In this document: piece after piece, positions 3,259 through 15,770 of the stretch
Layout: every line of letters starts with the position of its first letter
How positions within the stretch are numbered: position 1 is the stretch's first letter
Notes under the pieces: generated by a model
What the model was told of the DNA's origin: nothing
Database searches by the model: none
What the model saw: the letters and a program-made list of their open reading frames with translations, nothing else
Assembly: GCA_963707025.1 (NCBI GenBank)
Contig: CAVPOM010000005.1
Location: forward strand, 192,001 to 256,000
Length of the DNA stretch: 64,000 nucleotides
Origin: an uncultured Verrucomicrobiae bacterium
Lineage (GTDB): Bacteria > Verrucomicrobiota > Verrucomicrobiia > Limisphaerales > Palsa-1400
Direction of reading: 5' to 3'
Made by a program: the position numbers and the translations under genes

Positions 3259-3849
3259 ATGGCAACTACAGCTACAGTGGAGCGTCCGGTTGCGAAACTC
3301 CAGGACGCCGAAGTGCGGTTCGTGAGGAATATCCGTTCCGCTTTGCGGCAGGGCGCCGAGGAGGCGGATCCCGTGACCGCGGCTCCCCAGAATCTCATCC
3401 GATTGACCGAAATTGCATTTTGTCAGGAATTCCCCGCCGCCAAGGCTGATAATCGCCTGATCAGTGCCATGGCCCGAGGAATCACCGTGCGCCGAAAGCT
3501 CAGGGAAGCAGAAGGGGGGAGCCTGTCAGCGGAAGAGGCGGCTCGAGAATTGGGCATTTCCAAGGCCGCCATTTTAAAGCGGTATCACAAGGGCCGGATC
3601 ATTGCCTGGCGCGAAGAACGGCAGAACGCAGCGCGATTTCCGGTTTGGCAATTCCAAGACGGCAAAGTTTTGAAAGGCCTGGAGGAGGTTCTCCAAATTC
3701 TCAATGCGGGCAGCCGGTTGGATGATTTCGGCCGGATGCTCTTTTTCCTTTCGAACATGGGCTTCCTTGGGAAGAAACGACCCGTGGACTGCTTGCGGGC
3801 GGGAGAGGTGAACAAGGTTTTGCAAGCGGCCCAGGGGCATGGCGGGTAA
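3259..3849 (+). CDS. Antitoxin (HTH plus Xre/MbcA/ParS-like C-terminus)
   Basis: HTH-like LSAEEAARELGISKAAI, FPVWQF motif, C-terminal LGKKRPVDCLRAG; overlaps the RES gene start. Confidence 0.8.
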   Translation: MATTATVERPVAKLQDAEVRFVRNIRSALRQGAEEADPVTAAPQNLIRLTEIAFCQEFPAAKADNRLISAMARGITVRRKLREAEGGSLSAEEAARELGISKAAILKRYHKGRIIAWREERQNAARFPVWQFQDGKVLKGLEEVLQILNAGSRLDDFGRMLFFLSNMGFLGKKRPVDCLRAGEVNKVLQAAQGHGG

Positions 3850-4447
3850 TCCATCTCCCCGCCGCGTCAGACTGCCACCGGCGGACCTGGGAACGCAAAA
3901 GCTTCCCGGCACCCGGCAGATCGCTCGAGCTTGGTTCAGGGTGCATCCCCGTTCGTACCGCGCGATTTTCTTCAACCTCAAACCGACGCATCGTTACTCG
4001 CATCCCCATTGCCCATTTCCGATTCTATACGTTGCCATTGATCCGGAAACCTGTCTCTGGGAAGCCTTTGGCGACGCCGTTTTCGATGACGGACACGCCT
4101 TGCCGAAAACCCAGTGGGATGATTTGGTGGCATCAACGATTCATGTGCCGGATCTCCATCTTTGCGATCTGTCCAAAACAACCACGCGCGGCGCCCTGGC
4201 CGTTGACCTGACAGCACTGATGAACGAGGACCTTGGTGTCCCCCAACAATGGGGCCTGGCGATTCAGATGCACCCCTCACAAGTGCCGGCCATCAAATTC
4301 AAGAGCCGATTTACTGGCCGCGCCTGTCTGGCGATTTTCGACCGCGGAGGAATCCGCCGGCATCTCCGGGAAACCTCCCTGGGCTCATTAAGCCAGTTTG
4401 ACCCAGCCTTGGCCTGGCTCACCAAACACCAAGTGACGTTGGCATAA
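3839..4447 (+). CDS. RES-domain toxin
   Basis: R-E-S signature: HRYS, ILYVA..TCLWE, IKFKSRF..CLAIFDR; coupled to the upstream antitoxin. Confidence 0.85.
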   Translation: MAGNPSPRRVRLPPADLGTQKLPGTRQIARAWFRVHPRSYRAIFFNLKPTHRYSHPHCPFPILYVAIDPETCLWEAFGDAVFDDGHALPKTQWDDLVASTIHVPDLHLCDLSKTTTRGALAVDLTALMNEDLGVPQQWGLAIQMHPSQVPAIKFKSRFTGRACLAIFDRGGIRRHLRETSLGSLSQFDPALAWLTKHQVTLA

Positions 4448-4503
4448 CCGACATGAGCGCTGCCCCGCCCCCGGCGCGCCCAGGGTTGACAACCCGTCTC
4501 ATC

Positions 4504-4527
4504 TATACTATCCATATGGATAGTATA
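4504..4527. promoter_or_regulatory. Perfect 24-bp palindrome, probable LexA operator
   Basis: TATACTATCCATATGGATAGTATA ends on the A of the lexA ATG; TTGACA at 4486-4491 lies inside a second small palindrome GGGTTG-A-CAACCC. Confidence 0.75.
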
Positions 4528-5150
4528 TGAAAGAACTGACCCCAGCCCAGCAACGGGTGCTGGATTTCATCCAAACTGAAGTCCAGGCCTGCCGACCCGC
4601 CCCCACCCTCCGCGAGATGGCCCGCCATTTTCGCTTCCGCAGCCATCGCGCGGCGGCCTGCCACTTGCAGGCGCTGCGGCGCAAGGGCTTCCTCCAGTCC
4701 GAACCCGGCAAAGCCCGCTCCCTGCGCCTGACTTCCCCGCTGGCCAAACTCCGCCGCCGCATCCTGGACATCCCCCTCTTCGGCTCCATCCCCGCCTGCT
4801 GGGCGCAAAGCCGCGAGCAGGAGGCCGAAGGCTGCGTTTCCGTGGACATCCAGAGTATCGGCTTCCTCCCCGCCCGCAACGCTTTCGCCCTGCGTGTCGC
4901 CGGCGATTCCATGATCGGCCGGCACATCTGCGACGGCGACATCGTCCTGCTCGAACACGGCCCGGAACCGCGTCCGGGGCAAATCGTGGCGGCGCTGATT
5001 GACCGCAAAAGCACGCTCAAGACCTTCCTGGTCAAAAACGGCAAACCCTTTCTCAAGGCGGAAAACCCAAAATATCCCGACCTCATTCCGTCCGACGAAC
5101 TGATGATCCAGGGCGTCTTCCGCGCCCTCCTGCGCAAGGCGCGCGAATGA
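4527..5150 (+). CDS. lexA: LexA repressor
   Basis: LTPAQQRVLDFI..PTLREMA..HLQALRRKGFL winged helix; S24 peptidase GDSM serine and TLK lysine; the usual Ala-Gly cleavage site reads Ala-Cys. Confidence 0.93.
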   Translation: MKELTPAQQRVLDFIQTEVQACRPAPTLREMARHFRFRSHRAAACHLQALRRKGFLQSEPGKARSLRLTSPLAKLRRRILDIPLFGSIPACWAQSREQEAEGCVSVDIQSIGFLPARNAFALRVAGDSMIGRHICDGDIVLLEHGPEPRPGQIVAALIDRKSTLKTFLVKNGKPFLKAENPKYPDLIPSDELMIQGVFRALLRKARE

Positions 5151-5153
5151 ATT

Positions 5154-8100
5154 ATGCGGACCATTGTTCATCTGGATGCGGATGCGTTTTTCGCCGCGGT
5201 CGAACAGGCGTCCGACCCGAAGTTGCGCGGCCAGCCAGTCGCCGTGGGCGGCGAGAAACGCGGCATCATTGCCTCCGCCTCGTATGAGGCGCGAAAATTC
5301 GGCGTCTCTACGCCGATGCCGACGGCGCGGGCGCGCAAACTCTGCCCAAAGCTGATCGTTCTCCCCGGCGATTTTGAGCGTTACGAGCAGTTCAGCCACT
5401 GGATGTTCGGCTACTGCTACGATTTCACGCCGGAGGTGGAACAAACTTCCATTGATGAAGGCTACTTCGATTTGTCCTGCGTTCGGAAATCGCCGGTGGA
5501 AATCGCGCTGGCCATCCGCCAGGCCATCGGCCAAAAGCTTAAAATTACGGTGAGTGAAGGGATCGGCGCCAACAAACTCGTCAGCGCCATCGCCTCCAAG
5601 CTGACCAAGCCCGCCGCCTTCCACGAAGTTCCCCCCGGCGGCGAGGCGGCGTTTCTTCATCCCTTGCCCAACCAATGGTTGCCGGGCATCGGTCCGCAAA
5701 CCAGCGCGCGCCTCAACGCCGCCGGCCTGGCCCAAATCCGCCATATCGCCGCCACCCCGCTGGAAATGCTCGGACTTCTTCTCGGCAATCAGTCCGCGGC
5801 CATCCGGCAATTCGCGCGCGGGATTGACGAGCGCCCGCTGGTTCCCCTGCGCGAACCGCAAAAATCCTTCAGCCAGCAGGAAACTTTCCCGGCGGACGTG
5901 ACGGACGAGGAATACATCCAGGCCGCCTTGCGGCGCATGGCCGACCACTTGTTTGCCAGGGTGCGCCAGGAAGGCCGCAGCATCCGCACGCTGACGGTCA
6001 AAGTCCGCTACAACGACATGGCGGAAGATCAGGTCAACGAAAGTCTGCGCGAGCCGACCGACTTGGAAACGGACGTTTATGGGCGCCTGGGCGCCATGCT
6101 CGGCTGCGCCTGGAAACGGCGCGTGAGTCTGCGCCTGGTGTCGCTCAAGCTGGCCAACGTCTATGACGGCCGCTTTCACGGCGAGCTGGCGCTGGAGGCA
6201 TCCGCCCAACGGCAAAACGCACAATCCCGCCTGGCGGCGGTGATTGACGAGTTGCGCCGGGCGCGGGGGCACACCGTCATCATGCGCGGGCATGACCTCC
6301 GGTTGAGAACCCCGCCCGCCGACACCGCCGCCAGCCTCACCCGGCAGGATTGGATCCCGCCCCGGCGGACGCTGGCGCCGGTGAAACGGGATGTCTGCGA
6401 TTACGTTCCACTCCGCGTTCACAGCCACTATTCATTTCTCGATGCCACACTCTCCCCTGTTGCCATCGTCCAACTGGCCAGGCGTCATGGCCTGCCTGCC
6501 GTCGCCCTGACCGACACGGGCAACCTGCACGGCGCGGTTGAGTTTGTGCAGGCAGCCAAGGAGGCCGGGGTGAAGCCAATTCTGGGCGCGGAACTGCGCC
6601 TGGGGGACCAGCCGCTGCTGCTTTACGTCGCGTCGGCGCGGGGCTGGCACAATCTCTGCCGGTTGCTCTCCAACCATGCCGGGCGGCACGGACCCGGGCG
6701 CCGACGAAGCCTCGGTCGCCAACCAGCAGCGTGGTCCCTTCTGGCGCGAAGAATTCAGCGGACTGACGGAAGGATTGATTGCCGTCAGCCAGGACGCGCG
6801 GTTGGCAGAAATGTTTCCGCGCCATTTCTACGGTCTGGCGGCATCCCGCGACACCCCCGGCCATTTTCCCATGGCGGCCTGCCCCTCCATCCACTGCGCC
6901 ACCCGCGATGACCGGCAGAAATACGACATCGTGCAAAGCATCCGCACGCGGACGCTCCTGCGCCACCCCCACCCGGACAAACGCAGCGGCGGCCGGCTTC
7001 ATTTCCGCGCTCCCGCTGAGATGATGATGGCGTGCCGGGATCATCCTGACTGGTTGCGTCACACCCAGGAGATCGCGGCGCGTTGCGACTTCGACCTCCC
7101 CTTCGGCCAGCCGCAATTTCCGGCGTTCGCAACGCCGGACGGCTCGCGGCCGGGGGAGTTTCTGCGGCGGCTCGTGCGGCAGGGGCTGCGCCGGCGTTAT
7201 GGCAGGCAGGCGGACAAATTCCAGCCGCAAGTGGCGGAGGAGCTCGGCATCATCAACGAGGTGGGTTACGAGGACTACTTCCTCATCACCTGGGATTTTC
7301 TGCAAGAGTGCCGCCGGCGCGGCCTGGAGTGGATCACGCGCGGCAGCGCGGCCGACAGCCTGGTTTGCTACTGCCTGGGCATTTCCGGCGTTTGCCCCAT
7401 CCGCTTCGATCTCTACTTCCGCCGTTTCCTCAACAAGGAGCGCATGGCCCTGCACAAACTGCCGGACATTGACATTGATTTTGCCCACGACCGCAAGGAC
7501 GACGCGGTGAAACTCCTCTTCGACAAATACGGCCGCGAACATTGCGCCGCCGTCGGCGGATTCTCCACCTTCCAGGCGCGCAGCGCCTTTGCCGAGGTGG
7601 CCAAGGTGCTGGGGGTGGCGGAACGCGAAGTCAGAAAGTTCACCGACCATTTCCCGTGGAGCTTTGGCGGCGGTTGGATCCCCGATGAACCCACCCCCGG
7701 CGGCGGGGCGGGTTTGGTGGAAATGCTGCGCGCCAGTCCTGAAAACCGCGATCTGCCCTTCGACGAGGAACCCTACCGGACGGCCTTGCACATGGCCGAG
7801 TTTCTCGACGGCGTGCCGCGCTATCCGAAGATGCACCCGTGCGGCCTGGTGCTCTCGCGCCAGCCGATGCACGAGCTGACGCCGACCTTCGTCGCCCACA
7901 AGGGTTATGCCACAACCCACTTCGACATGGACGCGGTGGAGGCGGTGGGTTTGGTCAAGATGGATATTCTGGCGCAAGGGGGCCTGGCGGCGATGCGCGA
8001 CGTCAAGGCCATGCTGGAGCGCCGCGGCATCGCCGTGGATCTGGAGCGGTGTGTGGCGCGGCATAAATCCGACGGCCGTTTGCTGCGGGGCAACCCGCCA

Positions 8101-9509
8101 GCGCCGAGCCGTGGCAGGATGAAAATGTTTGGGAGATGATCGCCGGCGGCCAGGCCCGCGCCGTCCATCACATCGAATCCCCCGCCATGACCAGCCTCTG
8201 CCGCCAATGCAACGTGCGTGAGATTGACGGCCTCATTGCCATCGTCAGCGTCATCCGTCCCGGCGCGGCCAACCAAGGCAAGAAGCTGGCCTTCACGCGG
8301 CGTTATCAAGGACTGGAGCCGGTGGCGTATCCGCATCCGTCGCTGGAGCCGTGCTTGCGCAGCACTTATGGGCTGGTGGTTTACGAGGAACATATTCTCC
8401 AGTTGTGCGAGGCGTTCGCGGGTTTGCCGCCCGGCCGCGCCGACATTCTGCGCCGGGCCTTGAACAAACAGAAACGCGCCGTGATTGAGGAGATGCGCGG
8501 CGAGTTCTTCCAGGCGGCGCTGGCGCGCGGCCACACGCTGGAGAAGACCGCCGAAGTGTGGGCGCTGGCCACCGGCTTTGCCGGTTACGCTTTCTGCAAA
8601 GCCCACAGCACCGCCTATGGCGTGGAGGCGTATCAGTCCGCCTGGCTCAAGCGTTATTTTCCCGCCGAGTTCATGGCCGCCGTGCTGACCCAGGGCAAAG
8701 GCTTTTACCATCCGCTGGTCTATGTTCTGGAATGCCACCGGCTCGGTTTGAAGCTGCTGCCGCCGTCGGTCAATGAACCCGGACCAACCTTCGTGCCGCA
8801 CGGCAACTCCATCCGCGTGCCACTGACGCGAGTCAAGGGACTCACCGCGCGCACGGCCGATGCCATGCTGCAAGCTCGTGACCGCGGGCCGTTCGCCTCC
8901 CTGGCCGATTTCTTCCGCCGCGTCCTTCCGGCGGGCGAAGAACTGGAAGCGATGATTCGCGCCGGCGGCCTGGATGAATTCGGCGAAACCCGCACCCGCC
9001 AATTCTGGCAGGCGCGGCATCTGCTCAAAACCTTCGGGGCGGGCGTGACGCCGGAGCAGGGCTGGCTGGTTCCCCCGCCGGGACTGGAACAGCAGCCCGC
9101 CATCCCCCTCCAGGAGCCAACCCGCCTGCAACGTCTCCAATGGGAAACCGATCTCTTCGGTTTCGCCGTGAGCGGACATCCCCTGGAATTGTTTCCAGAC
9201 ATCGCCTGGGACACCTACTGTCCCGTCCGCCGCCTGGGCGAATTTATGGGTGACACCGTGACCGTCTGCGGGCTGGTGGTGGAGCAGCGCATCCATCACC
9301 AGATCACCGGCGAGCCGATGAAATTCCTGAGCCTGGCCGACTGGACCGGCATCGTCGAAACCGAACTTTTTGCCCAGACCTACCAAAGTCATGGCCTGGC
9401 GACCATCCGCCATCCCGTCCTGGAAATAGAAGCCCGGGTGGAACCCTTTGAAAACCAGCGCGGCTTCTCCCTGCGCGCCCTCCGCGCCGGCAAACCCCGC
9501 ACCCGGTAA
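5154..9509 (+). CDS. Fused DNA polymerase IV (Y family) / DnaE2-like C-family polymerase, ~1451 codons, with two compensating frameshifts (~6680 and ~8100)
   Basis: DinB motifs HLDADAFFAAVE, ASYEARKFG, SIDE; PHP motif HSHYSFLD..ALTDTGNLHG in the same uninterrupted ORF; RGSAADSL, PDIDID, KMDIL, GLVVYEEH, YAFCKAHS and a C-terminal OB fold in the two following ORFs; first and last ORFs share one frame. Confidence 0.88.
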
Positions 9510-9707
9510 ATTCCGACGGAGAAGTGGCGGGGGTAATGTCCCAGTCTTAATCCTAATCTTAATCCTAATCTCTTCTTGAGGCCATTTCTCATTGGTAATT
9601 GGGGATTAAGATTAGGATTAAGATTAAGATTACGAGCCGGATGAGAGACTGCCAGGGGAAGCGACAGCCTCAAGGCAGGAGCGACAACGAGATGGGTTTC
9701 TCCCGCG
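9500..9707. repeat. Left copy of a diverged direct repeat (polymerase stop + intergenic hairpin + copy of the 3' end of the 15831-17219 gene)
   Basis: cacccggtaaat...gtcccagtcttaatcc...ccatttctcatt matches 14649-14745; 9670-9707 matches 15831-15868. Confidence 0.85.
9543..9631. repeat. Inverted pair of hexamer arrays (CTTAAT/CCTAAT)n ... (GATTAA/GATTAG)n forming a long hairpin
   Basis: Directly visible; related arrays at ~47-69, 14688-15805 and 29638-29660. Confidence 0.85.
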
Positions 9708-10011: not shown

Positions 10012-10236
10012 TTAACCCCCTTTATGATCCCGGCAAAATACCAGAAACCGCTTGATCCATTGCAAATACGCCTGCTCCGTCCGCAGCGCCAGCCGGTGAA
10101 ACCGCATCACCTCCCGGCACTGCTCCATGAATTTGAGCTTGGGATTTGGCCTCAGCCTTTCCAGTGGCGCACTTGTCGCGCCGTAGCGCCGCGAAGGCGG
10201 CTGCAGCCTTTCGCCGGCGGGCGGTGGGATGTTCAT
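10012..10236 (-). pseudogene. intI: Truncated integron integrase (N-terminal SAM-like domain only)
   Basis: PKLKFMEQCREVMRFHRLALRTEQAYLQWIKRFLVF matches the IntI N-terminus; divergent from a cassette array; stops after 74 aa with no catalytic domain. Confidence 0.88.
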
Positions 10237-10252
10237 CCGGCAATAATTGCCC

Positions 10253-10281
10253 TTGACAGAGGCTGTTTTCAAGCATTTAAT
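10253..10281 (+). promoter_or_regulatory. Pc-like cassette promoter
   Basis: TTGACA-N17-TTTAAT pointing into the array, between intI and the first cassette. Confidence 0.7.
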
Positions 10282-10289
10282 GCAAAAAA

Positions 10290-10337
10290 TGAATCGAACT
10301 AGGCCGTGAAAATTCAATCGAAATACTGTTACGCAGC
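10290..10337 (+). other. Probable attI site, crossover at G/TT 10328-10329
   Basis: GTTACGCAGC is complementary (one mismatch) to GCTGCCTAAC at the end of cassette 1; no attC hairpin precedes it; left boundary approximate. Confidence 0.7.
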
Positions 10338-10631
10338 ATGAGCGCCCCGAACATATTCCTAAAGATTGGTGCGTGCCTTTGTGTTTTGATTGGCACGCTC
10401 TACGCTATATTGACCGCGCAGCTTGTCATTGACCGACCTTTCTTCAAAGGCGATGCACTCGTCATGATCATCATGACCATCTACGGATTGTTTGCGTTCG
10501 TCCCGTTCGTTGTGTTTGTCTATCCCAGATTCAAAGCACCACGAAAGCCGATTTTATTGAGTGCTGGTATTTTAGAGATTTTAGTCCCTGTCTTGTTTGT
10601 TTGGTTTTTCTTAGATGCTCTTACAGATTGA
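10338..10631 (+). CDS. Integron cassette 1: small membrane protein (about 3 TM segments)
   Basis: 97-aa hydrophobic ORF filling the space between attI and attC1. Confidence 0.8.
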   Translation: MSAPNIFLKIGACLCVLIGTLYAILTAQLVIDRPFFKGDALVMIIMTIYGLFAFVPFVVFVYPRFKAPRKPILLSAGILEILVPVLFVWFFLDALTD

Positions 10632-10643
10632 TTTTATGCTGCT

Positions 10644-10800
10644 GCCTAACACCGCGCTGGAGCCAACGCCGACTGCCCCTTCCACCTTCGCCAAGGCTAC
10701 GGTGGACAGGTGAGTTTATGAATGGTTTGAGTTATACAACGATTATCGAGTTTGCGGAGCCGCTCGCCGGTCGGCGTGGCTCAGCTTTGGATCGTTAGGC
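10644..10800 (+). repeat. attC1 (157 bp)
   Basis: GCCTAAC ... GTTAGGC with imperfect dyad symmetry (GAGCCAACGCCGAC / GTCGGCGTGGCTC). Confidence 0.93.
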
Positions 10801-10821
10801 CACTTACACATCACACAAATT

Positions 10822-11094
10822 ATGAGCACCAAATACACCAAATGGTTCGAGCAGACAGCAGCCGACCCGACACGTCGCCGTGCTGCCATTTCTGATTATT
10901 CCAAGCGGCGCACCGTTCTCATTTGTTGCGCTTTGGTTATTACTGGCTGCGCGGCTGCCACATATTTCCCGACACCGCACAGTCTCAAAGGCACAGCAGC
11001 ACTTACTTTTGCGGCAGCTATGTCGTGGATTTCATGCGCCAGAGTTGGTTCCGATCTTCGGACGCTCAAGCTACTCGACAGATTTTTACCATGA
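10822..11094 (+). CDS. Integron cassette 2: hypothetical two-TM protein
   Basis: ORF bounded by GTTAGGCCACT and its complement AGTGGCCTAAC. Confidence 0.8.
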   Translation: MSTKYTKWFEQTAADPTRRRAAISDYSKRRTVLICCALVITGCAAATYFPTPHSLKGTAALTFAAAMSWISCARVGSDLRTLKLLDRFLP

Positions 11095-11116
11095 TTGATT
11101 TGACAGATAGCCAGTG

Positions 11117-11218
11117 GCCTAACAAGTCGCCGGAGCCAACCGCCGTTGGCGCTTTTGTTTCCCGACCAGTCGGGATTCACGTCACGAGTCGGCGGTGGCT
11201 CAGCTTTTTTCGTTAGGC
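11117..11218 (+). repeat. attC2 (102 bp)
   Basis: GCCTAAC ... GTTAGGC, GAGCCAACCGCCG / CGGCGGTGGCTC arms. Confidence 0.93.
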
Positions 11219-11270
11219 GGCAAGGCACACCATAAACAAACAACACAAAACGAAGAATGCTACAAAGCCT

Positions 11271-11750
11271 ATGAAGAAGAACTTTAAGACAATTCAACTT
11301 GGACTTTGCTCCGTTTTAGCGGCGGCACTCACGGGTTGCGCCAGTTCTAGAGACTACAGTCACGTTTCCAGTCAATTTCCTCAAATCCCCGCCGGGGAAC
11401 GCCGAATTGTCTTCTACCGTGGAAACGAACTTTCTGGCGGCGGTCAATGGCATACGATTTGGTTGAATGATGCCATGATTGGCTACCTTTCATCGGGTTC
11501 GTTTTTTTATGAAGATCGTCCGGCGGGCGACTACGGCATCTCTGGCCGAGCAAAAGGTTTTTTGCATATTACACTTGAAGAAAAACCACTGGTTATATCA
11601 CTAAAAGCCAATGAGACCAAATATATCCGTTTCACACAAACAAGTGGCTTGGGAAGCATCAGGATCATTCCGACGCCTGAGGATAGTGATTCTGCGATGA
11701 AGCTTTTGCCAAAATGCTTATACAACGAAGGCAGATATCGTCTTTTTTAG
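11271..11750 (+). CDS. Integron cassette 3: lipoprotein, DUF2846-like
   Basis: Lipobox LTGC, RIVFYR, GSFFYEDRPAGDY; bounded by GTTAGGCGGCAA / TTGCCGCCTAAC. Confidence 0.8.
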   Translation: MKKNFKTIQLGLCSVLAAALTGCASSRDYSHVSSQFPQIPAGERRIVFYRGNELSGGGQWHTIWLNDAMIGYLSSGSFFYEDRPAGDYGISGRAKGFLHITLEEKPLVISLKANETKYIRFTQTSGLGSIRIIPTPEDSDSAMKLLPKCLYNEGRYRLF

Positions 11751-11765
11751 TTATGGAATGTTGCC

Positions 11766-11867
11766 GCCTAACAAGTCGCAGGAGCCAACCGCCGTTGGCG
11801 CTTTTGTTTCCCGACCAGTCGGGATTCACGCCGCGAGTCGGTGGTGGCTCAGCTTTCTACGTTAGAC
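11766..11867 (+). repeat. attC3 (102 bp)
   Basis: GCCTAAC ... GTTAGAC; close relative of attC2. Confidence 0.93.
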
Positions 11868-11889
11868 ATCACTGCGCACCTCAGAATTT

Positions 11890-12309
11890 ATGTCACTCGA
11901 ACTACACATCTTCATTCAGGACTCGCAGGTTCCGAGCCGTGATGCTTGGCAGCAAGCGATTGGGGAGGCAGGCTTTCCTACGGTCCTTGAGCCGACGCTT
12001 GACCTTCGGCGAGACACCGGATTCAGACCAACGAGCTACTAAGACCAAGCCACGGGATATGAGTTTTACCTGGAGCCGGCAGCGGGAATCCTTGAGGCTT
12101 ACCCGCACATCACCGAGCAGGTTGGCAGCCGTGATATGTGCGCGACATTTCGCTGGGGCGGCGACCTTGTTGAGTGTGCCGCAGCTATTTCGTCAGCCGC
12201 AGCACTTACGAAGCTTGCAGATGGTATTTATTTTTATCCAGACGATGACATCATTCGCACCGCCGATGATGTTGTTGAGGCGACGCGCGAGGAGTTGGCC
12301 TCGATATGA
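11890..12309 (+). pseudogene. Integron cassette 4: 139-codon gene with an internal TAA (12040-12042); absent from the ORF track
   Basis: MSLELHIFIQ...TGFRPTSY*DQATGYEFY...CATFRWGGDL...EELASI* fills the cassette bounded by GTTAGACATCAC / GTGATGTCTAAC. Confidence 0.8.
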
Positions 12310-12316
12310 CCGTGAT

Positions 12317-12415
12317 GTCTAACAAATCGCTGCAGGAAACGCGGGATGGCCGGTCCAGTTCCGCTTCGCGGTTCACGGTTTTTGGTCCGGCGTGGCTCAG
12401 CTTTTTTCGTTAGGC
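12317..12415 (+). repeat. attC4 (99 bp)
   Basis: GTCTAAC ... GTTAGGC; arms pair less well than in the other sites. Confidence 0.88.
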
Positions 12416-12426
12416 ATCATCACGCT

Positions 12427-12726
12427 ATGATTGCATTTGAGGTTTACATAAACGGACAGAAGCGATTCACAGCAGGCGGTGATTATCCGACTCTTACCAC
12501 CGCTCTGACGCTTATCCATAGACAGTTACCCAAGCCTAACGACGCCACCATCCTGTTTTCTACGACCGGCATAAAGCCAGACGAGATGGTGACAGTTGGT
12601 TCGTGGCCTAGCGAAGATTTGACCGTTGGCAACCGAGTTGAGATTCGTATTGTTGAGGTTTCTGAAGTTGACGCACCAGAATCTGTTGATAAGCATAAGC
12701 GAGCAGATGACAATGTTGATGCCTAA
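12427..12726 (+). CDS. Integron cassette 5: hypothetical protein
   Basis: MIAFEVYINGQK...; stop codon lies inside the inverse core GCCTAAC, as is typical of cassettes. Confidence 0.8.
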   Translation: MIAFEVYINGQKRFTAGGDYPTLTTALTLIHRQLPKPNDATILFSTTGIKPDEMVTVGSWPSEDLTVGNRVEIRIVEVSEVDAPESVDKHKRADDNVDA

Positions 12727-12819
12727 CAAGTCGCCGGAGCCAACCGCCGTTGGCGCTGTCAGTTCCGCTGTCGCGGTTCACGTCGCGAGTCGGCGGTGGC
12801 TCAGCTTTTTTCGTTAGGC
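12721..12819 (+). repeat. attC5 (99 bp)
   Basis: GCCTAAC ... GTTAGGC with the same arms as attC2 and attC3. Confidence 0.93.
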
Positions 12820-12848
12820 AGCAAGGCACCACACCATAAAATGAGCCT

Positions 12849-13124
12849 ATGAAAACCAGTGACATCCAGAAGCCAGACGCGACGAAGCAGATTATTCTTT
12901 CAGCCTTCGCGGTGATTTTCTTTTGCTTCATCTTACCATTTTGCAGCTTGCCGATGCGTTCAGCCGGCGGAGCCATTTTGTTCACGGTTTATTTTTGGCT
13001 TTTCTCAGGCAGCTTACGCAGCCGCAGCGGTTCACTGACGCCAGCGTATTTTTTGGCGGCGTTCATCTGGCTTTGCGCGATAGTAGTCGGCGTTCTGTGT
13101 TTTCTAGGCGCTGTCGAGTTATGA
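12849..13124 (+). CDS. Integron cassette 6: small membrane protein (about 3 TM segments)
   Basis: Hydrophobic 91-aa ORF bounded by GTTAGGCAGCAAG / CTTGCTGCCTAAC. Confidence 0.8.
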   Translation: MKTSDIQKPDATKQIILSAFAVIFFCFILPFCSLPMRSAGGAILFTVYFWLFSGSLRSRSGSLTPAYFLAAFIWLCAIVVGVLCFLGAVEL

Positions 13125-13133
13125 CGACTTGCT

Positions 13134-13290
13134 GCCTAACACCGCGCTGGAGCCAACGCCGACTGCCCCTTCCACCTTCGCCAAGGCTACGGTGGACAGG
13201 TGAGTTTATGGATGGTTTGAGTTATACAACGATTATCGAGCTTGCGGAGCCACTCCCCGGTCGGCGTGGCTCAGCTTTGGATCGTTAGGC
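13134..13290 (+). repeat. attC6 (157 bp)
   Basis: Near-identical to attC1. Confidence 0.93.
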
Positions 13291-13334
13291 ATCATTTCAC
13301 CACAAACATAAACGTCAACAAATGGAGATTGAAT

Positions 13335-13628
13335 ATGAAACTGAACATTAGGGCATTCGCGCTGACATGCGGCACACTCTGGGCGCTGGGGCTGTTTTCT
13401 CTGACTTGGTGGCTCATCGCATTCGGTGGTTCCACCGGAGAACTCACATTCATCGGCAAGGTGTATCTTGGTTACACAGTTTCGCCGTTTGGCAGCGTGA
13501 TTGGATTGGTATATGCGTTCTTCGATGCTTTGATTGGCGGTGCGATTTTTGCGTGGCTCTACAACAAGATGGCATCTTGTAACAAGATGACGGGTTGCGG
13601 TGAGGATAAGAAGCCGACCCAGCCATGA
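13335..13628 (+). CDS. Integron cassette 7: two-TM membrane protein resembling a family often annotated as bacteriophage holin
   Basis: MKLNIRAFALTCG..W...YLGY...GSVIGLVYAFFDALIGGAIFAWLYN; GGAG upstream. Confidence 0.7.
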   Translation: MKLNIRAFALTCGTLWALGLFSLTWWLIAFGGSTGELTFIGKVYLGYTVSPFGSVIGLVYAFFDALIGGAIFAWLYNKMASCNKMTGCGEDKKPTQP

Positions 13629-13629
13629 T

Positions 13630-13786
13630 GCCTAACACCGCGCTGGAGCCAACGCCGACTGCCCCTTCCACCTTCGCCAAGGCTACGGCGGACAGGTGAG
13701 TTTATGGACGGTTTGAGTTATACAACGATTATCGAGTTTGCGGAGCCACTGGCCCGTCGGCGTGGCTCAGCTTTGGATCGTTAGGT
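13630..13786 (+). repeat. attC7 (157 bp)
   Basis: Near-identical to attC1 and attC6; ends GTTAGGT. Confidence 0.93.
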
Positions 13787-14530: not shown

Positions 14531-14766
14531 AGTTAAGGTTCTTCTTGCTTTGGGGTACGGGGAGAAGAACATTAACTGAGGCAGGGGTCCCGGCAGGCCG
14601 GACTGCCCTCCCTACCAACCGTGACCGGACGCATCGGCGTCAAGCGCACACCCGGTAAATCCAGGAGAAGCGCCAGGGGTCATGTCCCAGTCTTAATCCC
14701 AATCTTAATCCTAATCCTAATCTCTTCTTGACGCCATTTCTCATTTTACGAAAGAGATTAAGATTA

Positions 14767-15770
14767 GAGCGTTTCCATAAATGATATAGCTTGACTGGGG
14801 CGAGAGGGCTGGCAGGCTTGAGCCATGCGAGCGATACCCGTGTCTGCGCGCGAGCGCATCCTGCAACTCTATGAACAAGGCAAAAGCACCCGCGAGATCG
14901 CGGACTTTTTCGGCTTTTGCGTGGCGGCGGTGCGCCGGGTCCGGCAGCAGTTCCAAGAGCGCGGCACGCTCCAGCCGCAAACCCATTTGTGCGGGCGCAA
15001 AACGCTGCTGAACGCCGGACGCCAGGCTCGCCTGCAAAAGCTGGTGGCGGCCCAGCCCGACGCGACGTTGGCCGAGTTGGGGGCGCGTCTGGACCGCCCT
15101 TTCGGGACCTCCACTGTGGATTTGTGGCTGCGCAAACTGGGGTTGAGCTATAAAAAAAACGCTCTGCGCCGCCGAGCAGAACCGTCCGGACGTGGCCGAA
15201 AAGCGGGCCCATTGGCATGAGCGTCTGGCAAGTGACCCACCTGCCCGACTGGTCTTCGTGGATGAAAGCGGGGCCAACACCAAGATGACCCGTTTTTGCG
15301 GGCGGTCACCCGTGGGCCGAAGACTGGCGGCCCACGTCCCGCAGGGACATTATCAGACCACCACCCTGGTCTGCGCCATTCGTCTGGCCGGGCCTGCGGC
15401 CCCCTGCCTCTTTGAGGGGGCCATGGACGGGGAAATGTTTTTGGCCTGGATCCAGCAGGGGCTGGTGGTGGAGTTGCGCAAGGGTGACTTGGTCATCATG
15501 GACAACTTGGCCACGCATAAGGTGACCGGAGTCCGCCAAGCCATCGAAGAGGCCGGGGCAACGCTGCTGTATCTGCCGCCCTATTCGCCAGACTTTAATC
15601 CCATCGAAAATATGTGGAGCAAGGTCAAACAAATTATGCGAGGTCTCGCGCCGCGAACCGCCAAGGAACTGCTCCAAGCGGCGAAGATTGCCTTTGAAGC
15701 CATCTCCACCGCCGATTGCCGGGGCTTCTTTTTAAACGCCCGCTACGCTACATGATTTATGGAAATGCTC
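14767..15770 (+). mobile_element. IS630-family insertion sequence (1004 bp)
   Basis: 24-bp TIRs (21/24 match), TA duplication at 14765-14766 and 15771-15772, split transposase. Confidence 0.93.
14825..15755 (+). CDS. IS630 transposase in two ORFs joined at an A8 run (15152-15159)
   Basis: HTH ORF (QPDATLAEL..LGLSYKK) then DDE ORF (FVDESG, MDNL..HK, YLPPYSPDFNPIE). Confidence 0.9.

Follow-up and report, generated by a model that had tools for sequence, protein, structure and literature searches.

The window analysed here is a stretch of 64,000 nt from an uncultured Verrucomicrobiae bacterium (GCA_963707025.1, contig CAVPOM010000005.1, positions 192,001-256,000). It carries a lexA gene followed by one long gene in which a Y-family DNA polymerase (PolY), similar to DNA polymerase IV (Pol IV), is joined to a C-family polymerase of the DnaE2 type. 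The features of this cassette, in window coordinates, are as follows.

4486..4491, plus strand: -35-like hexamer, 41 nt 5′ of the lexA start
4504..4527, no strand: candidate LexA operator, a perfect 24-bp palindrome of two half-sites around an 8-nt spacer; it overlaps both the promoter and the start of lexA
4527..5150, plus strand: lexA, 207 aa, with the cleavage-site region and the Ser/Lys motifs
5154..6161, plus strand: polymerase half of the Y family, similar to Pol IV, with the catalytic residues D8 and D101/E102; matches PRK02406
6231..6290, plus strand: helix-Gly-strand motif resembling the RecA N-terminus (RecA-NT), preceded by a weak clamp-like E-L-x-L motif
6291..6410, plus strand: variable linker between both polymerases, without a stop and without a conserved internal start
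6411..6684, plus strand: start of the PHP domain in frame 0, with a degenerate set of metal ligands
about 6685, plus strand: frameshift 1, one extra base; the frame 0 stop follows at 6909-6911
6686..8103, plus strand: remaining PHP domain and Pol III NTPase core in the +1 frame, with PDIDID at 7462-7479 and KMDIL at 7957-7971
about 8104, plus strand: frameshift 2, one missing base, placed by alignment to homologues
8105..9509, plus strand: fingers, (HhH)2, clamp-like Q-G-W-L (9057-9071) and probable OB fold, without the tau-binding C-terminal domain

The lexA product scores 144.9 against TIGR00498, above the cut-off of 110.95, which bears out the proposal of an earlier note on this DNA that the cassette is headed by its own lexA. 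The polymerase frame starts at 5154, three bases past lexA, and runs without a stop through matches to IMS (7-149), IMS_C (237-336) and PHP (420-509); the Pol III core follows in the +1 frame, and the finger/HhH portion is again in frame 0. The motifs named in the earlier note, namely, DADAFF, SIDE, the helix and HSHYSFLD, were all found where it had placed them, and PDIDID and KMDIL are intact as claimed, but read in the +1 frame. The NCBIfam matches of the C-family half extend up to position 1016 of 1047 in PRK05672 and end at 1050 of 1146 in PRK05673, that is, before the tau-binding domain. An OB fold has no Pfam match in this copy, and its presence is suggested by the extents of these NCBIfam matches together with weak OB matches in relatives. 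Thus, the claim that the chain ends right after an OB fold stands with respect to the missing tau-binding tail, whereas the fold itself is a likely assignment.

A search with the junction between the two halves as the query, as the earlier note had proposed, produced 2257 matches among proteins of 892-2545 aa, and in each of the best 120, which were inspected, IMS_C and PHP occur together in a continuous architecture; 106 of these 120 are at least 1400 aa long, and the named proteins among them belong to Verrucomicrobiota. The databases already carry the fused proteins, annotated under ordinary names. A scan of a genome collection with an alignment of the DnaE core yielded 515 relatives, the best 80 of which are the basis for all counts out of 80 loci given here. 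The junction lies in a single frame in 72 of the 80 loci, with the remaining eight starting at a contig edge; it is fused wherever the contig covers it (72/72), contrary to the scenario, considered in the earlier note, in which homologues are always encoded by two genes. The entire protein is in a single frame in 69 loci, and lexA is present in 64. The stop-free path from the end of the DinB domain through the helix and a linker of about 35 aa to PHP, which the earlier note had traced in this copy, recurs in the relatives: the linker, located by pattern match in 64 of the 80 loci, has a median length of 35 codons and contains no stop in any of the 64. A conserved internal start in the linker was considered and rejected, ATG within the last 25 linker codons being rarer (9/64) than the background of 38%.

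Among 150 further genomes of the order, a hand count gave 60 with the one-frame junction, 86 in which the gene was not detected and 4 that could not be scored; a few of the 150 contain two or three copies. A scan of 200 genomes of the class detected the PolY (E <1e-85) in 28 genomes that do not belong to the order, 14 times in a long frame and 14 times in a short one. All 10 of the long-frame genes checked are fused, with lexA adjacent in 7, and a dnaE of the clade lies near 1 of the 8 short-frame genes checked. A scan of 400 genomes of the phylum, with two candidates scored per genome, yielded three fused genes and none in the 266 genomes from other classes, so that occurrence across the phylum is not supported. 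Six peptide patterns taken from the PolY-PHP part and matched exactly, an approach that detects close relatives only, revealed no relative among viral contigs. No plasmid record among the matches listed is fused, the best matches being 29-35% for the DnaE half and 30-39% for the PolY half, and no single chain in the PDB spans both halves. Taken together, at the level of sequence, the fusion is a genuine single-chain gene of the PolY-DnaE2 type, encoding about 1450 aa. Split forms occur within the clade as well (L040, L041 and L275), and in two split sisters, the polY stop overlaps the dnaE start as ATGA, such that one indel could interconvert the fused and split forms. A translationally coupled polY-dnaE2 pair is the likely origin of the gene, which can return to that arrangement.

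The PolY half exceeds the cut-off of the Pol IV equivalog model PRK02406 (264.3 vs 256), and in a set of 106 closely related homologues, which share 68-92% identity across the junction query, the presumed steric-gate position is aromatic (F in 98, Y in 6 and gapped in 2). With catalytic positions defined as in the supplement header of PMC12926913, D10 of PolY is kept in 104/104 of the same set (two rows are gapped), D103/E104 in 106/106, and the three-aspartate site of the C-family half, D773/D775/D939, in 106/106; the retention of the DinB catalytic motifs that was noted earlier in the window thus extends to its relatives. Both active sites are apparently in working order. The PHP ligand set is degenerate, with R, T and A/S standing where the motif of PMC12926913 has three of its ligands, and no proofreading is thus expected.

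The C-family half is the second copy of such a polymerase beside the full DnaE1 of the genome, and it falls below the cut-offs of both NCBIfam models, scoring 500.5 against PRK05672 (dnaE2; cut-off 939) and 621 against PRK05673 (replicative). Phylogenies, also suggested in the earlier note, were built with FastTree (82 rows; 41 of 109 rows dropped beforehand) and with an IQ-TREE quick search (50 rows, rooted on PolC; 32 of 82 rows dropped), both on sets without actinobacterial DnaE2 and without a named (Bacteroidetes) DnaE2B reference. In the IQ-TREE phylogeny, the C-family half is lodged inside a 36-row clade of DnaE2 in the wide sense, apart from DnaE1 and DnaE3, with a Shimodaira-Hasegawa-like approximate likelihood ratio test (SH-aLRT) support of 100, and within it in a subclade that is sister (99) to four imuB-linked DnaE2A references; FastTree left the DnaE2 groups unresolved. 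Fused and unfused rows are intermixed in a 12-row clade (100), and a Desulfosarcina lexA-DUF72-polY-dnaE cassette shares the subclade of the C-family half. By this phylogeny, the C-family half is a DnaE2 in the wide sense and not the canonical ImuC/DnaE2A. The description as DnaE2-like is accordingly sound as far as the grouping and the missing tail are concerned, but does not extend to DnaE2A/ImuC, from which the PRK05672 score and the separate subclade set it apart.

The segment after the little finger can be read, with modest support, as a RecA-NT-like motif. Compared with the RecA N-terminus of the same order by hhalign, it aligns without gaps over 27 columns with a score of 19.9, whereas 47 control windows reach at most 14.7. 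The stretch between the motifs flanking the linker varies from 38 to 168 residues, and in most homologues, the distance from the RecA-NT motif to PHP is about 35-45 residues. In an AlphaFold2 model of a 1166-aa homologue (predicted template modelling score 0.66), the motif forms a confident helix and the linker is disordered, with low confidence for the PolY palm and the linker.

Consistent with the claim of the earlier note that imuA and imuB are missing from the cassette, neither gene was found there or elsewhere in the 88%-complete genome, in which the ImuA model NF033429 matched only RecA itself, below the cut-off; no ImuA-like cluster was found among the neighbours in the 80 loci. The genome holds one recA, a full DnaE1 and a separate ordinary DinB, and two truncated near-copies of the ordinary dinB were observed as well (C9:390619-391233 and C9:40000-40209; L003 and L006). 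Canonical DnaE2A is encoded in 43 of the 150 genomes of the order. Among 12 of its loci inspected, imuB adjoins in 8 and a detectable imuA in 3, and the ImuB-like neighbours of DnaE2A lack the catalytic motifs in 8/8. The fusion and DnaE2A occur together in 4 of the 150 genomes vs 17.2 expected (Fisher 4e-7), a count that weighs less than its P value because kin are not independent; 56 of the 60 fusion carriers have no DnaE2A match with this query, and the 8 families that include both have them mostly in different genomes. Hence, in this order, the fusion seems to occupy the same slot as the three-gene imuABC and mostly to take its place. Genes that recur near the fusion in the best 80 loci encode a DUF72 protein (17) and a GIY-YIG nuclease (10), and in 5 loci an AlkD-like gene sits between lexA and the polymerase gene. 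In some loci, other genes are inserted between lexA and the fusion (L084 1650-5440, L089 1084-4950 and L058 4952-5377), among them an open reading frame for a methyltransferase-like protein of about 1040 aa (checked against Pfam in L089) and a four-helix IVP gene.

The promoter region was compared over 63 loci, after two with a misplaced start had been dropped and those with short upstream DNA skipped. TTGAC stands 17-31 nt 5′ of the operator in all 63, and in 55 of them this place holds a palindrome in which 7 or more of the 8 arm pairs match, compared with 2 of 63 at a control site; the lexA transcript is probably near-leaderless. Both arms of the operator change together, tracking helix 3 of LexA, and the mutual information between operator and LexA peaks at residues 40 and 41, with a mean of 0.55 for helix 3 vs 0.08 for the peptidase domain, values that are uncorrected for kinship and raised across the entire N-terminal domain. 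At least seven half-site types, tracking the helix-3 sequence, can be distinguished among the cassette operators (window 4486-4527; L037 and L047-L126), one of which fits the E. coli-like CTGT-N8-ACAG box. The types are scattered over a poorly resolved tree of the peptidase domain (31 of 59 branches open), a hint that the operator and the DNA-binding domain may be swapped as a module.

Genome-wide, the operator has a single match, at 38.8 bits, the next one reaching 13.9, and the scan found it neither at recA nor at dinB. A global SOS regulon for this LexA, which was considered, is thus unsupported. This lexA is the only one found in the genome, as is the case in 4 of 5 relatives searched, the other S24 protein of the genome resembling a phage-type repressor, and the regions upstream of recA in 30 loci of the order (L142 and L172-L200) contain none of the three box patterns searched for. 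These observations suggest that a global LexA regulon is absent from this group. The cassette itself possesses the sequence hallmarks of an SOS operon, a cleavable LexA and an operator in the promoter.

On balance, the cassette probably encodes a damage-inducible translesion polymerase in one chain, a covalent form of the mutasome composed of PolY, a DnaE2 similar to DnaE2B, and RecA. DNA damage would activate RecA, leading to cleavage of this LexA and de-repression of only this operon, and RecA would bind the RecA-NT motif, standing in for ImuA. In the model of ImuABC, the C-terminal barrel of ImuB (ImuB-C), next to its RecA-NT motif, contacts the PHP domain of DnaE2 (PMC12926913); the linker occupies the position of ImuB-C beside the RecA-NT motif and may therefore replace the contact that tethers DnaE2. 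Both halves would synthesise DNA, in the simplest case with PolY copying past the lesion and DnaE2, which lacks proofreading, continuing from there. The hand-off from inserter to extender, the binding of RecA and the SOS induction are what we infer. Several points weigh against this reading. Invariance of the active sites is less telling in 106 closely related homologues than it would be in a deep set. The RecA-NT match has an hhalign probability of 24%; RecA ranks only 95th among 7372 frames with a position-specific scoring matrix, although its best window is the N-terminal helix; the top 12 matches of a hidden Markov model of the motif do not include RecA; and comparison of whole alignments missed the motif. 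The AlphaFold2 model, finally, is uninformative on the interface and domain packing. A bolder version, in which RecA on the hinge triggers intramolecular primer hand-off in a self-contained two-polymerase machine that replaces ImuABC widely in Verrucomicrobiia under a private LexA, with operator and DNA-binding domain diversifying and perhaps swapped like phage immunity regions, is tentative and on the doubtful side.

The main rival is tethering without hand-off, whereby DnaE2 carries out the mutagenic synthesis, as it does in ImuABC, and PolY serves mainly as a clamp and RecA adaptor, or the two halves act independently, each on lesions of its own. The Y-family subunit of ImuABC is a dead scaffold (PMC6511836), the linker is variable in length (38-168 residues) and of low confidence in the AlphaFold2 model, and in 7 of the 8 loci checked, standalone PolYs of the same clade have no dnaE in the vicinity, implying that the PolY half can work alone. 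However, the dead scaffolds of the order lose the catalytic motifs (8/8), whereas the fused PolY keeps them, and the ratio of nonsynonymous to synonymous substitution rates (dN/dS) relative to locus L047 is lowest for PolY among four segments (0.10 vs 0.21, 0.13 and 0.19). These features argue against a pure adaptor, although not against independent halves, and the tether appears somewhat unlikely overall.

A further alternative concerns the copy in the window only. A 1453-aa homologue places the frame switches: it matches in three pieces, at 91-93% identity, whose ends meet near 6685 and 8104, and alignment to L047 shows one extra base near 6685 and one missing near 8104. The two indels restore the frame, as the earlier note had pointed out, yet they do not cancel in effect: frame 0 stops at 6909-6911 and the protein is not rescued. 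Programmed frameshifting was rejected, homologues being continuous at both sites. If both indels are real, the gene would be a recent pseudogene, reduced to a PolY of 585 aa that ends in a PHP stub; two indels in 4.4 kb exceed the 0.44 expected from the assembly rate (P=0.07), a point against assembly error, and loss is common, the gene having not been found in 86 of the 150 genomes of the order. Set against this, a comparison with 400 kb from a close relative reveals frame switches in 18 of 115 orthologues of this assembly (19 switches in 187 kb), in agreement with the earlier attribution of the frameshifts to sequencing or assembly. There is no excess of replacements on this branch (replacement/silent counts 25/98 vs 25.5/67.5, p=0.26), and the four segments compared with L047 contain no in-frame nonsense codon. 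Of the sequencing runs searched, none contained half of the words of the query, and no RNA run was listed. Contigs from three runs, which come from relatives and not from this strain, lack the extra base at 6685 (one contig each, depth 3-6), and one such contig, with 0 differences over 235 nt, has an alignment that sets in precisely at 8104 with its 4th letter, a hint of little weight. We therefore regard a pseudogene as unlikely and consider it quite probable that the copy in the window is intact in the living cell, the indels being assembly errors.

The fusion might instead serve for back-up replicative or gap-filling synthesis and not for mutagenesis, for example, for repair in slow-growing cells. 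For the C-family half, the replicative NCBIfam model outscores that of dnaE2 (621 vs 500, both far below cut-off), and the clamp-like Q-x-x-L motif is kept. Nevertheless, the tau-binding tail is missing, the PHP ligands are degenerate, the genome has a separate full DnaE1, and the gene is linked to lexA and patchily present (60 of 150 genomes), making this role very improbable. Finally, an artefact of assembly or gene calling from two adjacent genes, for which true split forms in the clade (L040, L041 and L275) and the indel-prone assembly could be invoked, is refuted by the junction matches (106 full-length proteins from several independent sources), the locus counts (72/72 fused; 64/64 linkers stop-free, with ATG near the linker end in 9/64 vs 38% background) and the survey of the order.

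The surroundings of the cassette in the window include mobile and toxin-antitoxin-like elements. Directly 5′ of the lexA promoter, at 3259-4447, a candidate Xre-like antitoxin gene (no Pfam match) is followed by a RES-domain gene, and the pair looks like a RES-Xre toxin-antitoxin system. Farther upstream, two PilT-like T2SSE ATPases are encoded in tandem (207-2593). The stop codon of the fusion is immediately followed by an AT-rich inverted repeat of TAATCT/TAATCC units (9518-9635), whose 36-nt flank, together with the last bases of the gene, recurs at about 14650-14700 (14664-14699), just before an insertion sequence, an IS630-like transposase in two frames (14825-15755) with helix-turn-helix and DDE_3 domains. 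In the region 10015-13786, a minus-strand fragment of an integrase (truncated, N-terminal SAM-like) precedes a series of short genes with repeats of 115-161 nt ending in GTTAG between them; the region resembles an integron-like cassette array with a broken integrase.

In Bacteroidetes, an active PolY and DnaE2 without ImuA and ImuB have been described as separate genes (PMC6511836), a module named DnaE2B-PolY-RecA and predicted as the Cellulophaga algicola type in PMC12926913, where 2 of 11 mutasome types are listed as characterised. In the portions of these papers available to us, 'fusion' occurs twice in PMC6511836, both times about ImuB, and is absent from the main text of PMC12926913, which covers nine Verrucomicrobia genomes, none of them Pedosphaera or Limisphaera. 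A literature search, with subscription journals outside its scope, found no paper on a PolY-DnaE2 fusion. The new part is the covalent link, given that the pairing of an active PolY with DnaE2 in the absence of ImuA and ImuB was already predicted for separate genes; the fusion is thus a conserved covalent variant of a predicted mutasome type, apparently undescribed. By the gene-fusion argument, it supports the predicted PolY-DnaE2B complex. It is an open question in the field which polymerase inserts, which one extends, and by what means DnaE2 is recruited when ImuA and ImuB-C are missing; a natural one-chain form with two separately mutable sites makes all of this testable with one protein and RecA. 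That the fusion and imuABC nearly exclude each other suggests that a single order has two interchangeable routes to induced mutagenesis, and the operator/helix pairs represent a natural library for LexA specificity.

Among the known systems, the closest is DnaE2B-PolY-RecA, with which the fusion shares a PolY that is active as judged by its residues and has a RecA-NT motif, a tail-less DnaE2, the lack of ImuA and ImuB-C, and RecA as the presumed partner; it differs in being one chain rather than separate genes, in its occurrence in Verrucomicrobiia and in its canonical LexA with an own operator. Similar to ImuA-ImuB-DnaE2, it is a LexA-linked cassette of Y-family polymerase and DnaE2, with the Y-family C-terminus beside the DnaE2 PHP domain, but the Y-family half is catalytically intact, ImuA and ImuB-C are absent, the DnaE is not DnaE2A, and there is a single gene. 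The PolY half matches the DinB/PolY-RecA dimer type in exceeding the PRK02406 cut-off and in its catalytic triad, aromatic steric-gate position and RecA-NT-like tail, and standalone PolY relatives at 45-55% identity occur in the class; unlike DinB, it is fused to a C-family polymerase, in a genome with a separate ordinary DinB. In Pseudomonas, lexA2-imuABC has a cassette-specific LexA paralogue. The arrangement in the window is similar in that LexA heads, and apparently controls, only the mutagenic cassette, whereas in this genome no second LexA was found, recA lacks a box, and operators of close relatives differ widely.

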